A stretch of 64,000 bases of DNA from a virus. Its lineage: Duplodnaviria; Caudoviricetes. How positions within the stretch are numbered: position 1 is the stretch's first letter; each line of letters opens with the position of its first letter. Location of the stretch: positions 24,033 through 88,032 of IMG/VR virus record IMGVR_UViG_3300037424_001256. One strand, given 5' to 3'. The notes beneath the pieces were generated by a model that saw only the letters and a list, made by a program, of their open reading frames with translations, was not told the DNA's origin and did no database searches. Below, one piece after another: positions 12,838 through 38,321 of the stretch. A program made the translations under genes and the position numbers.

Positions 12838-13542
12838 ATGACTAAGATTTTGGTGGTTTGCGCTCACCCAGATGATGAAGTTCTCGGATGTGGTGGCATG
12901 TTAGCAAGATTAACTAGGATTGATAAGCAAGAAGTCTTTATTGGGTATCTTAGTTATGGACTTACATCTCGGATTAATACCCCGGAACTTGATGAAGTGG
13001 AAAAGGAAAGAGTCAAGGAAAAAAGTAGAAAAGCTATTGAAGTATTAACAGGTTTACCAAGGCCAATCATTAAAAAGAATCTCAGATTCGCAAATTATCC
13101 AGACAATATGTTTGATAGCGTCCCATTGTTGCAGATTACAAAGGTTATCGAAGGTTGGGTTGATGAAATTAAGCCAGATGTTATATTTACTCATTCCAAT
13201 AAAGATCTAAACATAGATCATAGGATTACGCATGGTGCCGTATTGACAGCTACAAGACCAATTCATGGTGAGCACATAGTCAAAACGATCTATTCTTTTC
13301 AAATTCCCTCAAGCACAGAATGGTCATTTGGTAATTATGGAAAATTTAATCCGAATGTTTTCTTGAATGTAACAGGGTTCCTGCACAACAAACAAGAGGC
13401 TCTAGAATGTTACGATACCGAGGTGAGGGAATTTCCACATCCACGTAACTTATTGGCGATATATTACTCAGCTCATCTAGCTGGTTCTGTAGTAGGAATG
13501 GCTGAAGCTGAAGCGTTTGAGTTAATCAGGGGGTTAATTTAA
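12838..13542 (+). CDS. PIG-L/LmbE-family deacetylase
   Basis: VCAHPDDEVLGCGG, DLNIDHRIT, AEAFELIR. Confidence 0.9.
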   Translation: MTKILVVCAHPDDEVLGCGGMLARLTRIDKQEVFIGYLSYGLTSRINTPELDEVEKERVKEKSRKAIEVLTGLPRPIIKKNLRFANYPDNMFDSVPLLQITKVIEGWVDEIKPDVIFTHSNKDLNIDHRITHGAVLTATRPIHGEHIVKTIYSFQIPSSTEWSFGNYGKFNPNVFLNVTGFLHNKQEALECYDTEVREFPHPRNLLAIYYSAHLAGSVVGMAEAEAFELIRGLI

Positions 13543-13669
13543 TAATTAGTGGGGCGACTCTAGGGATCGTGCTGCTTCCGCACTCACTATTCCGAGTAAC
13601 TAGGGGAGTTGCAGACGCATAAGGGGCGAAGAGCGTCATTGATAAAATAGTTTATAAGGGTGATAAACT

Positions 13670-15020
13670 TTGAAAGATTTAATATCAAACTTAAGTAGGT
13701 TAAGTAAAGAGCAGAAAGCAAAGTTCATAGAAAGCTTGAGCCCTGAAGAACTTATAAACATTGCCTACGATTGGGAGGGGGTGTTCGCTCGTCCCAGCCA
13801 ATTAGAACCAGCCGGGGATTGGACCTATTGGTTGATCCTAGCTGGTCGTGGCTGGGGTTAGCTAACCTATAGGCAAAACTAAAACTGCTGGCGAATGGAT
13901 AAGAAAAAGAATATATACAGGAGAAAGCAGACATCTTGCGTTAATTGCTCCAAGGGCAGCAGATATCCGGGATGTTATGATAGAAGGGCCAAGTGGCTTG
14001 CTTAATTGTTTCGAGCCAAGTCATAGACCAATTTACGAACCTTCAAAGAGAAGAGTAACATTTCATACTGGAGCTACGGCAATAACTTATTCCGGTGATG
14101 AACCAGATCAATTGCGCGGCCCCAATATAGACTCATTTTGGGTCGATGAGTTGGCGGCGTGTAGGTTGCAGAAAGAGATCATGGAAATGCTTGCCTTTTG
14201 CTTGAGAATTGGTTCTAATCCAAGAGGTATAATTACCACAACTCCAAAACCAACAGTCACCGTTAAGGGGTTGGTAAGACAAAAAAATGTAGTAGTAACA
14301 AGAGGTTCAACTTTTGAAAACAGGGATAACTTATCACCTGTTTTTTTTGACTCCATTATTGGAAAGTACGAAAATACGCGTATTGGCAGACAAGAGTTGA
14401 TGGGTGAAATACTGGAAGATAACCCAAAAGCTCTTTGGAAGAGTAGCGAAATAGACCAGCATAGGGTAAGTAAAGCACCTATCTTTAGAAGAATTGTTAT
14501 TGGCGTTGATCCAGCGATTAGCGCAAATAAAAAGTCTGACGAAACAGGAATTGTTGCAGTTGCAAAAGGAGTGGATGATCATTTCTACGTCTTAGATGAT
14601 CATTCTTGCAAGGAAACTCCCTCTAAGTGGGGTAAGGCTATCTGCAATCTATATGATAAATGGGAGGCAGACAAAGTTATTGGAGAGGTTAATCAGGGTG
14701 GAGATATGGTTTCTTATGTCATCAAGAACATTGATCCTTTGATTAACTTCAAATCAGTCCGGGCAACAAGAGGTAAGAAACTTAGAGCTGAGCCTGTAGC
14801 TAGCCTCTACGAATCTGGAAAAGTTCACCATTTAGGAGTATTTCCAGAACTTGAAACACAAATGGTAGAGTGGAATCCAGAGGAAGATACAGGATCTCCC
14901 GATAGAATAGATGCCTTATGTTGGGCAATTTGGGAATTGATGGATCTTAAAAAGAAGGGCATAGGTAAATACAATCCTAGTGGAATAACTGATTTCAAAA
15001 GAGAAAGTCCAAATATGTAG
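13670..15020 (+). CDS. terL: Terminase large subunit interrupted by a 16-nt insertion (13859-13874) in Walker A
   Basis: Part 1 ends LILAGRGWG-TAG; the frame resumes at 13875 as KTKTAGEW, through Walker B 'WVDELAA' and nuclease 'GVDPA...DRIDA'; joined product about 444 aa. Confidence 0.85.
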
Positions 15021-15047
15021 GAAAAATCATAAGAATATTACTGTAAT

Positions 15048-15272
15048 GTGGAGGTGAGAAAAGTGGAACAGTTATTAGAACACTGGAAACAGATGGTTTT
15101 TATAGTTAATCAGGAACAACGAATCGAGAAAGAGTGTCAGTATAATGGCATAGATTTTAATGTTGTTATGCAATTAGCTGATTCGACTCACTGGAGCTTA
15201 CAGAAAACATTTGATTTTTGCCTTCGGAATAAGGAGGCGATGCAAGAATGGCCTTGCCAAAAGATCCTATAA
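15048..15272 (+). CDS. Hypothetical protein
   Basis: ORF between terL and portal. Confidence 0.4.
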   Translation: MEVRKVEQLLEHWKQMVFIVNQEQRIEKECQYNGIDFNVVMQLADSTHWSLQKTFDFCLRNKEAMQEWPCQKIL

Positions 15273-16582: not shown

Positions 16583-16873
16583 ATGGGTTTCAAGGGTTTC
16601 AGTAATACGAAAACGAGAACTATAGCTGAAGCTTACTTTATCATCGAAAACGAAGCTACTATAAGAGCAACAGCATCTGCTTTTGGGGTTAGTAAGAGTA
16701 CGGTCCACCGCGATATAAGGACTCATCTCGAAGATCTCGATCTAGTTCTTTACAATAAAGTGAGAGATATCATTAGCTTAAATTTAGCAGAACGACATAT
16801 CAGGGGTGGTCAGGCTACAAAGCTTAAAAAGTTCAAAGAGTCATCTACTAAAAGTCTTGAGAGGAGATCTTGA
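16583..16873 (+). CDS. spoIIID: SpoIIID-like transcriptional regulator
   Basis: TIRATASAFGVSKSTVHRD...NLAERHIRGGQATK closely matches SpoIIID. Confidence 0.85.
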   Translation: MGFKGFSNTKTRTIAEAYFIIENEATIRATASAFGVSKSTVHRDIRTHLEDLDLVLYNKVRDIISLNLAERHIRGGQATKLKKFKESSTKSLERRS

Positions 16874-17135: not shown

Positions 17136-18599
17136 GTGATGCATGTTCAGGAGTATTTAGATGTAGTCTTAGATACTCTCAAAAAATTTATTCCAAAAGA
17201 AACATTTGATAAAATTAATGAAATAGCAGTTCCAGAGGAGATCATAAAGGGAGTGACACCTTTTAGGGATCTCCCACTTGCTGATAGAGAGATGGAGTGG
17301 GATGGATCACAGGCAGATAAAAATATTAGGGAATGGGCCGGGGGCGATGATAAGGAAAATATAAATTGGAGTAAGTATAGCCAAGGGTTCTTATGGGTTG
17401 ATGATGAAAATAAGGAATCTTTTGGTGGATATAAGTTTCCAATTGCTAATGTAATTGAAGGTAAATTAACAGCAATACCGAGAGGAATATTCGCTTCTGC
17501 AGGAGTTCTCAATGGTGCCATGTTAGAGGGAGGAGTATCCCAGATAAATGTTCCAAGTGAAGATATACAAGGTATGAAAAATCACGTTGACCGTTATTAT
17601 GCAAAAATGAGAGAAACTTGGGATGATGATAAATTAGTTAGTCCATTCAAAAAGGAAACAGATATTGTTGAAAAAATAAATGATCGAGTGCGAATGGTGA
17701 AGAGTTCAGGTAAGCCAAATTCTGAAATAGCATTTGTCGGAGCTTCACCGGGAAAGATTGAATACTTAAGAGGTGAAGCGTTTGTTGGACCATGTGGAGA
17801 AACATTCAATGAATCATACATTAAGCCATTAGGATTAAGTCGTGAAGATGTATTTCTAACAAATGCTGTCCCTACGCTATTGATTGATGACTTCGGAAAT
17901 GTCAGGGAGCCAACAGATATTGAGGTCGGGGATTGGCATGGATGGTTGGATGGTGAATTAGAAAGAGCTAATCCAAAAGTAATAGTGGCCTTGGGTCAAA
18001 AGGCAAAAAAAGCCCTTGGAGAAGATGTTGATTTTGTCTTACCACACCCTATGGCAATCCGAAGATTTAGTGATTCTGGTGAAGTAGGTAGAAAACTGAA
18101 ACAGATAAAGCTTAAACTAGACGAAATTAATAAGGGATTGCCAAGTGTAGGTGATGTTCATATAGATTCCACTAATTGGAAAAGACCTAAGAGAAACAAA
18201 TCTAGTATCCAAAAAGATGAAATTATCTATGCCGATATAATCAAGGCCGATATAGAAAAGAAACTTGTATATGGCATAGTTTTAGAGCCGGGAAGTGTCG
18301 ATGCTCAGAATGACACAATAAGCGCAGATGAGATAGAAAGATCTGCACATATGTATTTAAGGGATTCCAGAGTTGTTGGAGAGTCACACAAGGGTAAAGC
18401 TGGAGCAAATGTCGTGGAGAGTTATATTGCTCCTGTAGACTTTACTCTTGGTGGTCAAAACGTGTCTAAGGGAACATGGATAATGGTCGCTAAAATCAAT
18501 GATGAAAAACTTTGGAATGACACGAAAGACAAAAAATTCAATGGTTTTTCGATAGGGGGATTTTCTAGGAGAATCCCAGTAGATAAACCAGTCAGCTAA
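17136..18599 (+). CDS. Multidomain head-maturation protein: N-terminal domain, UDG family-4-like domain, XkdF-like putative prohead protease
   Basis: IAFVGASPG...FVGPCG...DVFLTNAV...PKVIVALG...LPHP (UDG-like); KKLVYGIVLEP...VVESYIAP...GTW...FNGFSIGG (XkdF-like). Confidence 0.75.
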   Translation: MMHVQEYLDVVLDTLKKFIPKETFDKINEIAVPEEIIKGVTPFRDLPLADREMEWDGSQADKNIREWAGGDDKENINWSKYSQGFLWVDDENKESFGGYKFPIANVIEGKLTAIPRGIFASAGVLNGAMLEGGVSQINVPSEDIQGMKNHVDRYYAKMRETWDDDKLVSPFKKETDIVEKINDRVRMVKSSGKPNSEIAFVGASPGKIEYLRGEAFVGPCGETFNESYIKPLGLSREDVFLTNAVPTLLIDDFGNVREPTDIEVGDWHGWLDGELERANPKVIVALGQKAKKALGEDVDFVLPHPMAIRRFSDSGEVGRKLKQIKLKLDEINKGLPSVGDVHIDSTNWKRPKRNKSSIQKDEIIYADIIKADIEKKLVYGIVLEPGSVDAQNDTISADEIERSAHMYLRDSRVVGESHKGKAGANVVESYIAPVDFTLGGQNVSKGTWIMVAKINDEKLWNDTKDKKFNGFSIGGFSRRIPVDKPVS

Positions 18600-36512: not shown

Positions 36513-37366
36513 ATGGCAAATATGGTCTATGATTATGCAAAGAAATTTTTAGTTGCTTCATCTAGTACTCCAGCAAAACACATCGATCTACTTGGTAATA
36601 CTATCAAGGTTGCATTAGTGGGAAGTACCTATATTCAAGCATCTAGTCATTTCCTTTTTAAGAGAGGAACAGGAGCAGCAGCAAGTATCACTCCTTCATG
36701 TTGTGAGCTAAATGGAACTGGATACGCAGAAGGTATTGGAGCTAGTACAGGTCGTAAAACTTTAGCTTCTAAGGTATTGACTCAAGAATCTGCAAATACT
36801 AGGGTCATCTTCGATGCAGCGGATATAACTTGGACAGCAATCAACGCTGGAACGGCAGGAAAGTTGATCGTTATTCGTGAGGGTGGGCGGGGGACTACTA
36901 CGAGCGACACTGGTACAGTTTTGATTTGTACAATTGATAGCGGATTTCCAGTTGTTACAAATGGTAAATTGTGGAAACAAACTGCCGTCTAAGGTGGAAA
37001 CAGCTTAGATTATTAGCGCGAAATTAAGCGGGAAAGTCCTCCATTTTTTAGGATAACCCGAACCGAAGGCGTGTGAAAGCACTAAATCATGGTAACATGA
37101 TTGATAGCGAGAGCTAGTCAGGGGCAACGCATAGGAGCTGCGGCTTTAAGCCAATAACGCTCCCAAGAGTTCGCGCCACGAAAGCAACAGAGCTTTCCTA
37201 AATGGGGTTGTAACCATTTAGCCTAACGTTATGTCGAGGGTGAAAAGGTATGCTGGACTATACCAATGGTAAAGGTATAGAAGTTAGGATAAAAAGCCTA
37301 ACGATAACAAGATCGGGTGATCTCACTATTTCATGGTCAACAGCGGGTATAATAGATTTGACATAA
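36513..37366 (+). CDS. Tail-module structural protein split by a group I intron (exons 36513-36965 and 37316-37366; 167 aa spliced)
   Basis: Splicing gives ...FPVVTNG/GDLTISWSTAGIIDLT*, restoring the TNGGDxTIxW motif. Confidence 0.8.
36966..37315 (+). mobile_element. Group I intron, 350 nt, no internal ORF
   Basis: 5' exon ends in U, intron ends in G; P1 AUGGU/GCCGU with G-U at the splice site; P4-like GCGGGAAA, Q-like CCCGAACCGAAG, P7 GCATA/TATGC in GGGCAACGCATAG...GAAAAGGTATGCTGGAC. Confidence 0.85.
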
Positions 37367-37424
37367 CAGCAAGTATACCATAATGTTGTGAAATGTGTTA
37401 TAATTGAGGTGGAGGTGTTTCATC

Positions 37425-38321
37425 ATGGAAATACAAAATCCACCTCAAAAATTATTCCGAGGATGGAAACAGGATTTAGCAGATCAAATTCAGGGGATTT
37501 ATGATCAGGGATTTTCAACAGGAGAGGTAGCTAAAAAATTAGATATTAACAAATTAAGAGTTAAGCATTATTTATCAATTATGGGTTATGAATTTTCAAT
37601 GTCGGAAGGATGTAAGAGAAGAACAAAATCAGTATTCAATGATGTTGAACTAAGTAAAGAAGTTTTAGAAATTATTGAGGGTAATTTATTAGGTGATGGT
37701 TCATTGACTCTCCAGAAAAACACTAGCAAACCTCATCTAGTTCCTAGGTCAGCAGTTTATTCTCATGCGACAAAATCATTAGCTCAGATTGAATGGCTCA
37801 AGAAATTATTGGTTGATAATGGTTTACCTGTTAGGGATTATGTTCATCTAAAAAAAGCTCACCAAGAAATATATAAAAATGGCCCAAATGCTGGCACTAT
37901 TGCCAATTATAGTGATAGATATGATTTTAAAAGTGTTTCTCAGCCATCCATAAAGATATTGAGAGAAAAATGGTATAAACCTCATAAGATTGTACCAACA
38001 GATTTAAAATTAACTCCATTAACGCTCCTGCATTGGTATTTAGGAGATGGAACTTTATGTAGAAATAAAAAACCTGTATCTTATTCAGTAAAACTTTATA
38101 CCTATTCATTCACTTATGATGAAGTTTTTTATCTGAAGAAAAGATTATTATTTGATCTGGATTTAGAATCAACAGTATTAAAGAGGCACATGACTGATGG
38201 CCAATATTATATCGCTATACCAAGTATTAATGACAAAAATATTTCACATTTCTTCTCCCTAATCGGCCCATGCCCACCGGAACTCATCACCGACTACGGA
38301 CACAAATGGCCCAACACATAG
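37425..38321 (+). CDS. Free-standing double-motif LAGLIDADG homing endonuclease
   Basis: IEGNLLGDGSL and LHWYLGDGTL motifs; GGAGGTG RBS; extended -10 TGTTATAAT at 37396-37404. Confidence 0.85.
   Translation: MEIQNPPQKLFRGWKQDLADQIQGIYDQGFSTGEVAKKLDINKLRVKHYLSIMGYEFSMSEGCKRRTKSVFNDVELSKEVLEIIEGNLLGDGSLTLQKNTSKPHLVPRSAVYSHATKSLAQIEWLKKLLVDNGLPVRDYVHLKKAHQEIYKNGPNAGTIANYSDRYDFKSVSQPSIKILREKWYKPHKIVPTDLKLTPLTLLHWYLGDGTLCRNKKPVSYSVKLYTYSFTYDEVFYLKKRLLFDLDLESTVLKRHMTDGQYYIAIPSINDKNISHFFSLIGPCPPELITDYGHKWPNT

Follow-up and report, generated by a model that had tools for sequence, protein, structure and literature searches.

A putative stop-initiated translational hop within the P-loop of an interrupted phage terminase large subunit gene

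The window analyzed here is a 64,000-nt stretch of DNA (bases 24033–88032 of the 88,032-bp IMG/VR virus record IMGVR_UViG_3300037424_001256, a low-GC [36.6%] phage genome from a sediment metagenome that CheckV rates as 100% complete), and its subject is terL, which is split by a short insert within the Walker A motif (P-loop). The 5′ coding segment of terL (13670–13858, + strand) begins with a TTG start, is preceded by the ribosome-binding-site (RBS)-like AAGGGTGAT, and runs for 63 codons to a glycine; the corresponding open reading frame (ORF; 13670–13861, frame 2) encodes 63 aa and ends in WLILAGRGWG*. The downstream frame is open from 13866, reads GKTKTAGEW... from 13872, and has its last sense codon at 15017 and its stop at 15018–15020. 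Counted from the codon AAA at which decoding would resume, the 3′ coding segment (KTKTAGEW..., 13875–15020, + strand) lies in a different frame from the 5′ segment and matches both Terminase_6N (PF03237, 3.4e-19) and Terminase_6C (PF17289, 1.2e-17). By these matches, the gene is assigned as a Terminase_6-type terminase large subunit, with N-terminal ATPase and C-terminal RNaseH-like nuclease domains. A Mu-type portal gene lies downstream of it, and the genome holds no second terL.

At the interruption, the letters run TGG (13853–13855), GGT (13856–13858), TAG (13859–13861), CTAACCTATA (13862–13871), GGC (13872–13874), and AAA ACT (13875–13880), just as they were read in the initial annotation, a model-made note on this DNA that had proposed a ribosomal bypass of the insert. 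GGT (+ strand), the proposed take-off codon, encodes the last glycine of GRGWG, a position common to all interrupted relatives, and is followed directly by the TAG stop (+ strand), where relatives have TAG, TAA, or TGA. GGC (+ strand), the proposed landing codon, also encodes glycine and lies at a distance of 16 nt from GGT, with 13 nt between both codons. The putatively undecoded gap (13859–13871, + strand) thus measures 13 nt, or 16 nt with the landing codon, and it is absent in the uninterrupted relatives L062–L065 and L002–L012. All three frames are stopped inside the insert, by (i) the TAG at 13859–13861, (ii) a TAA at 13863–13865 in the resume frame, and (iii) a TAG at 13870–13872 in the third frame, so that neither a +1 or −1 slip nor readthrough can yield full-length TerL. 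An open frame is kept only by landing on CCT, ATA, or GGC (13866–13874); GGC, the sole glycine triplet of the resume frame after the TAA, gives the exact Walker A motif of the family.

Distant relatives (42–53% identity) have an uninterrupted GRG[WFA]GK[TS], and L062–L065 and L002–L012 encode GRG[WFYA]GK[TS] with contiguous flanks. Among the 14 closest proteins (61–76% identity), seven are full-length calls (434–454 aa) and seven, the window's own included, are truncated calls (346–393 aa); the retrieved DNA of the truncated calls is interrupted directly after the same glycine codon. L013–L015, L021–L023, and L025 have GGT as the take-off codon, the 5-nt gap TAGGT, and AAG or AAA as the resume codon; L016 has GGC, a 15-nt in-frame gap with TAA first (TAACCAAACCAACGC), and AAA; L057 has GGT, a 17-nt gap with TGA first (TGAACCCAAAATAAGGA), and AAA; and L056, the N-terminal part of which is 92% identical to that of the window, has GGG, a 31-nt gap that opens with TGA, contains a GAAA-capped stem of 7–9 bp, and ends in ...TATTAGC, and AAA. 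A further gap, TAGTGGT (7 nt, between GGT and AAG), occurs in a contig of sequencing run X1, described below. The initial annotation had looked to relatives for the same insert; the position of the interruption and its opening with a stop recur there, whereas the gap lengths differ (5, 7, 15, 17, and 31 nt). As in the window, the resume frames of L056 and L057 are stopped shortly before the resume codon, in L057 by a TAA that directly precedes the landing codon GGA. The 5-nt form is present in several samples, including 81.9-kb and 83.5-kb genomes, the latter (G001) having terminal repeats and a rating of 100% complete. Short N-terminal ORFs from two further samples, P0122 and P0123, also end exactly at GRGWG. 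In the P0123 contig (ENA ERZ1758400), the next called ORF starts 520 nt after the GRGWG-ending ORF, and an intron or some other larger element may be inserted there, at the shared position in the P-loop.

Each stop-started gap begins directly after a glycine codon, and TAG, TAA, and TGA are all used. Were the first triplet unconstrained, a stop would occur there with a chance of only 3/64 in each independent event, and since TAG, TAA, and TGA call for three events or more, the observed pattern would be very unlikely. In a maximum-likelihood tree built from the C-terminal parts, terL genes with and without gaps interleave: the window is sister to the uninterrupted L062 (support 100/99), L016 groups with the uninterrupted L064, and the 5-nt sequences form one clade beside the split P0014. 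This interleaving implies that gaps were gained repeatedly at one nucleotide position or were precisely lost several times. The gaps of the window and L056 appear to be homologous, since their 3′ thirteen bases are alike at 8 of 13 positions, whereas the hairpin-forming 5′ part differs. A distant blastn search of 13600–15100 against GenBank phages returned no match, a TAA pattern scan of viral contigs gave 28 matches that were all due to chance, and two scans of representative prokaryote genomes found no interrupted prophage terL, the 14 matches of the second being chance, and brought to light neither a named host nor a cultivable example. In viral contigs, the Trp-type pattern was found at six loci, a raw count with no denominators, vs 0 matches for the more common Phe-type loop (ILAGRGFG then stop), a contrast that hints at a contribution of UGG GGN or of the GWG peptide.

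Only one public run contains the stretch, namely DNA run X1, a sediment metagenome that is probably the source sample. A Logan contig from X1 (3338 bp, depth 9.3) showed 0 differences and 0 gaps against 13600–14200; it is an independent assembly, not an independent sample, and its identity with the window, insert included, rules out an assembler slip. The assembly error that the initial annotation had listed as an alternative is thus very improbable, and the confirmation of the insert for which it had looked to read mapping was obtained in part, from contigs rather than raw reads and in the same probable sample. Two further X1 contigs, which overlap window 13818–13865, part from it precisely at the gap: the first (depth 31) goes on as the 5-nt form, and the second (depth 5) goes on as TGGTAAGACC, with the 7-nt gap followed by KTKTASQW. 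Run X1 therefore contains at least three related phages with different gaps (16 nt at depth 9, 5 nt at depth 31, and 7 nt at depth 5).

The substitution patterns place both flanks of the gap under strong purifying selection in the interrupted lineages. For the N-terminal part of the window and L056, the nonsynonymous divergence (dN) was 0.015 and the synonymous divergence (dS) was 0.79, with an omega of 0.02; the 3′ segment of the window gave an omega of 0.07–0.08 against L062 and L016; and within the 5-nt clade, in which TAGGT is unchanged, omega was 0.03–0.10 at a dS of 0.4–0.66 in both the N- and C-terminal parts. The initial annotation's impression of intact flanks is borne out by these values, which overall amount to an omega of 0.02–0.10 at a dS of 0.4–0.8, and no other frame-breaking lesion was found in any terL copy examined. 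Among the best 120 homologues, 113 have an intact P-loop, and 113/113 of these keep the xGRxxGK[ST] spacing, so that products with extra residues are unlikely to work and would be without precedent in the family. Together, the selection, the lack of lesions, the single terL, and the P-loop spacing speak for the production of a protein in which GRGWG and KT are joined exactly.

From these sequence comparisons, we consider it likely that the expression of terL depends on a programmed translational hop, initiated at the stop, through which GRGWG-KT is restored. The 16-nt ribosomal hop put forward in the initial annotation finds support in the recurrence of stop-started gaps, the selection on both flanks, the P-loop spacing, and the single terL; moreover, the rule that a stop comes first fits a translational take-off with a slow A-site codon. 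In the proposed mechanism, the ribosome would decode GRGWG and pause with peptidyl-tRNA-Gly on GGU (13856–13858) and UAG in the A site, whereupon the anticodon would dissociate and the mRNA would slide by 16 nt, a movement that the small hairpin, a G-rich stretch (UGGGGU), or the nascent GWG peptide might assist. Once the tRNA had re-paired at GGC (13872–13874), decoding would resume at AAA and yield a TerL whose Walker A motif has the canonical form AGRGWGKT. The efficiency of such a hop is probably low, which a catalytic packaging enzyme would presumably tolerate. By established wobble rules, one tRNA-Gly(GCC) would read both GGU and GGC. The triplets that precede the resume lysine are GGC in the window, GGT in the 5- and 7-nt forms, GGA in L057, AGC in L056, and CGC in L016, so that four of the six types fit re-pairing of a glycyl-tRNA at a glycine codon. 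The matched glycine take-off and landing codons emphasized by the initial annotation therefore hold for the window, where GGT and GGC are synonymous, but not for L056 (GGG and AGC) or L016 (GGC and CGC).

Several observations weigh against this hop, and the main unexplained point among them is that L056 and L016 have no glycine landing triplet. Either re-pairing as in gene 60 of phage T4 is not the whole story, with minimal pairing sufficing or resumption being set otherwise in these two genes, or their copies are impaired. The hairpin that the initial annotation had placed around the take-off codon and stop (GGGTT-AGCT-AACCT, 13855–13868, + strand) does exist as sequence and has an exact 12-nt palindrome as its core (GGTTAGCTAACC, 13856–13867, one copy in the 88-kb genome), but by itself it is not above chance: 12-nt palindromes are common (17 in the window vs ∼21 in shuffles), the 5-bp stem with its AGCU loop appears in the centroid fold only and not in the minimum-free-energy fold, and the fold of the 55-nt context is on a par with that of shuffles (z 0.16). 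The relative L056, for its part, has a clear 9-bp stem with a GAAA tetraloop cap that begins at the stop codon (z −3.5), an observation that counts in favor of the hop. The window lacks, in addition, two elements of T4 gene 60, namely its type of nascent signal (the window's upstream peptide is ...DWTYWLILAGRGWG) and a GAG 6 nt 5′ of the landing codon (CCTATA precedes GGC). All of the sequences are metagenomic, which leaves the viability of any single genome unproven; no RNA run among the public runs contains the stretch; and the contig-level check in the probable source run is compatible with a minority insert-free form.

Removal of the gap by a non-translational route, through RNA excision or editing or through an insert-free DNA subpopulation, would present the ribosome with a continuous message and would make the two non-glycine landing triplets irrelevant. 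The wide variation of gap sequences among close relatives is in keeping with such removal, and a structured, intron-like insert with a LAGLIDADG gene lies elsewhere in the genome, although nothing points to removal directly. We regard it as unlikely, since (i) no known intron or bulge-helix-bulge substrate is nearly as short as the 1-, 5-, and 7-nt gaps, (ii) RNA excision would have no need of the in-frame stop that opens every gap, in the form of any of three stop codons, and that only a translational mechanism requires, and (iii) the Logan contig shows the insert-bearing form only. Rfam found no family in the whole window at gathering thresholds, and its one match at 13500–14100, to SCARNA7 (E 0.029), fell far short of the gathering score and is ascribed to chance. 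Archaeal bulge-helix-bulge splicing was rejected by reasoning, because the palindrome is perfect, without bulges, and the 5- and 7-nt gaps are too short. The contig and its interrupted relatives might instead be defective phages or decaying elements with a dead terL, as stops in all three frames and the purely metagenomic data would allow. Decay would have to account, however, for interruptions confined to a single nucleotide position across at least five lineages, for an omega of 0.02–0.10 in both parts after a dS of 0.4–0.8 with no second lesion, and for the 5-nt form, which reaches depth 31 in X1 and is also carried by an 83.5-kb genome that has terminal repeats and is rated as 100% complete. 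We therefore hold decay to be very unlikely.

Gene finders call two ORFs, and ATA in the window and ATT in L056 stand just upstream of the resume codon, as would suit a TerL composed of two polypeptides, a 63-aa N-terminal piece and an internally started C-terminal piece that assemble into the ATPase. Such a split would lie inside the P-loop, between G and K; a C-terminal piece that retains GKT has no conserved start or RBS, the first ATG (13977) being 35 codons past GKT, and L016, L013, and L057 have no start at the equivalent place. We judge this arrangement highly improbable. A simple +1 or −1 frameshift or readthrough, leaving a few extra residues in the P-loop, works on paper for the 5-nt gap (−1, GWG-LG-KT), the 7-nt gap (+1, GWG-SG-KT), and the 15-nt gap (readthrough), but it is impossible for the window, L056, and L057, in which the target frame is stopped within the gap, and 0/113 intact homologues have an extra residue there; its probability is accordingly slight in the extreme. 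Least credible is a sequencing or assembly artefact: the record is a single metagenome assembly, and the sole run with the sequence may be its source, yet Logan assembled the same letters independently, errors do not typically take the form of a 16-nt non-repetitive insert, and related gaps occur in other samples and studies. Two further candidates were discarded. A reassigned genetic code is incompatible with the use of all three stops to end ordinary genes (TAA 41, TGA 17, and TAG 12 among long ORFs), as expected of the standard code, and reassignment could not mend the frame change. Suppression by a phage-encoded tRNA was set aside because no phage tRNA, suppressor tRNA, or special tRNA is encoded in G000, the genome of the record, or in G001.

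A shorter form of interruption was found in the more distant TerLs L058–L061 and L113, which have one extra base after the same glycine codon (GGN, T, AAR). All of these are preceded by GGA AGG GGG TGG, which provides a Shine-Dalgarno (SD)-like AGGGGG that ends 6 nt before the stop. AGG GGG is present at this site in 4/4 unbiased 1-nt cases vs 0/11 uninterrupted relatives (Fisher 7e-4), and L113 is the only further TerL case among the matches listed in the AGGGGGTGGGGNTAA scan. The spacing of AGGGGG and the P-site glycine codon resemble +1 frameshifting in prfB, where an SD-like element ends 6 nt before the stop (PMC10732093), and these five genes are therefore candidate programmed +1 frameshift sites in terminase genes. 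The likeness is confined to the 1-nt relatives, whereas the window has no SD-like element, with CGT GGC in its place, and its +1 frame runs into the TAA at 13863–13865. The AGGGGG element thus marks the junction, through the 1-nt forms and independently of the longer gaps, as a site of recoding.

A broader reading, which we put forward tentatively and hold to be somewhat short of an even chance, is that the Gly-Lys junction of the TerL P-loop is a labile natural recoding site, at which stop-stalled ribosomes would shift or hop by 1–31 nt, landing in some lineages on triplets with which the glycyl-tRNA has no conventional pairing (AGC, CGC), and with fast turnover of gaps, in a manner distinct from gene 60. 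If so, the clade would represent a natural stop-hop family with relaxed landing rules. In either case, it provides a naturally graded set of variants at a single site in an essential and easily assayed gene, with gaps of 1, 5, 7, 15, 16, 17, and 31 nt, three stops, presence or absence of hairpins, and matched or unmatched landing triplets, from which the distance that bacterial ribosomes slide and the determinants of take-off and landing could be tested with reporters. Since gene callers split or truncate such terL genes (the 346–393-aa calls), judgements of completeness or of a "defective phage" may be misled.

As to its role, a low-efficiency hop might limit the dosage or timing of TerL; the initial annotation's suggestion that the hop gates packaging is pure conjecture. 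A short insert could also destroy the target of intein or intron homing endonucleases in the conserved P-loop DNA, which is one possible reason for its presence, and limiting TerL dosage or resisting homing endonucleases may thus be a phage strategy; terL is, however, flanked by no nuclease gene in this genome. In the distant relative L003 (697–2001), a ∼354-aa intein-like insert lies between K and T of GRGYGKT, 3 nt downstream of the gap position; it has two LAGLIDADG motifs and a C-terminal THN followed by T, and it begins with Met rather than with Cys or Ser. This element and the LAGLIDADG ORF of the present genome indicate that such elements circulate in this phage group.

The LAGLIDADG ORF itself (LAGLIDADG_2, 3.2e-16, 37404–38321) directly follows an insert in the structural-region gene at 36513–37365. 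This insert (∼305–342 nt, 36969–37311, near the 3′ end of the gene) is absent in G001, and the last ∼17 codons of the gene (SGDLTISWSTAGIIDLT) resume after it. It is flanked by the 9-nt direct repeat AATGGTAAA, folds with many GNRA loops (z −4.2 vs shuffles), and matches no Rfam family even when E values up to 1 are allowed. These features probably mark a self-splicing intron, of no assigned class, together with its homing endonuclease. Elsewhere, a 487-aa ORF (17136–18599) combines uracil-DNA-glycosylase-superfamily (8.3e-19) and XkdF-type phage serine protease (5.8e-29) domains; the fusion is unusual and lies in the region for head morphogenesis. A SpoIIID-family regulator (16583–16873, 2.1e-27), which directly follows the portal gene both here and in relatives, is a weak hint of a Bacillota host. 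Before the window, at 14456–14822 of the record (G000:C1), a 136-aa ORF of G001 matches two minus-strand frames 50 nt apart, which may reflect a frameshift or indel-rich divergence.

To our knowledge, programmed bypassing has been proven only for T4 gene 60 with its homologues and for the byps of yeast mitochondria. In one report, the listed features of T4 gene 60 are a 50-nt bypass with GGA as both take-off and landing codon, a KKYK...SSS nascent signal, and a GAG 6 nt 5′ of the landing codon (bioRxiv 10.1101/2024.12.09.627546, Fig. 1). The proposed hop shares with it a peptidyl-tRNA-Gly take-off, an adjacent 3′ stop, a glycine landing, resumption in another frame, and possibly a small hairpin around the take-off codon and stop, and differs from it in length (16 vs 50 nt), in codons (GGU and GGC vs GGA and GGA), and in gene (terminase vs topoisomerase). 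Neither the 5′ nor the 3′ type of gene 60 stem-loop was detected in the window, and there is no MobA-type homing-endonuclease cassette, as the ORFs neighboring terL have no nuclease domain and the nearest LAGLIDADG ORF lies at 37404–38321. The byps of Magnusiomyces mitochondria, as cited from Lang et al. 2014, number many per genome (PMC10732093; PMC5009743); like the gap described here, they are short and non-coding and interrupt essential genes, and translation passes over them, as is proposed for the window. In tblastn comparisons of G000 and G001 in both directions, which would miss gaps shared by the two, no other short frame-breaking insert was found, which argues against a genome-wide, byp-like proliferation. 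Synthetic stop-hops in Escherichia coli, engineered and of low efficiency, are cited from Weiss et al. 1987 (PMC5009743; PMC10732093); the 5-nt relatives (GGT TA GGT) have their exact +5 geometry, whereas the hop of the window would be longer.

The closest parallel is the Streptomyces phage terminase that the initial annotation had mentioned, which proved to be that of phiHau3 and to be interrupted at the equivalent junction between GWG and K. The large terminase of phiHau3 has two 10-nt frame-breaking inserts, the first of which falls after ...KGWG (the end of g6) and before KD (the start of g7) (PMC10732093), and StrepC.1 and Streptomyces catenulae prophages have a 7-nt insert at the same position (PMC10732093; Smith et al. 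2013). The phiHau3 gaps start with the rare Leu codon UUA, which has been tied to the bldA biology of Streptomyces; a UAA-substituted phiHau3 cassette in E. coli gave faint full-length product, and mass spectrometry revealed the junction peptide GWG-(N)DPLL (PMC10732093). We therefore treat the phiHau3 bypass as a candidate with partial experimental support. In a 2016 review, the nascent peptide KGWG was raised as a possible contributor, and natural in-frame stop-hops were said to be unknown at the time (PMC5009743). Beyond phiHau3, none of the papers searched described stop-started gaps in terminase P-loops. Both systems have a short frame-breaking gap in terL after GWG and before the P-loop lysine, with flanks that are contiguous in relatives, and a first gap triplet that is slow to decode (UUA there and the stop TAG in the window). 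They differ in that (i) the trigger is UUA in phiHau3 and a true stop here, (ii) phiHau3 has two gaps and the window has one, (iii) the hosts and GC contents are not alike, and (iv) the present clade mixes many gap lengths (1–31 nt). The comparison rests on the shared position and logic of the gaps; set against the literature in this way, the sequence evidence supports placing the window's terL as a case of phiHau3-like terminase recoding, but one that is apparently built on true stops and on many gap lengths.

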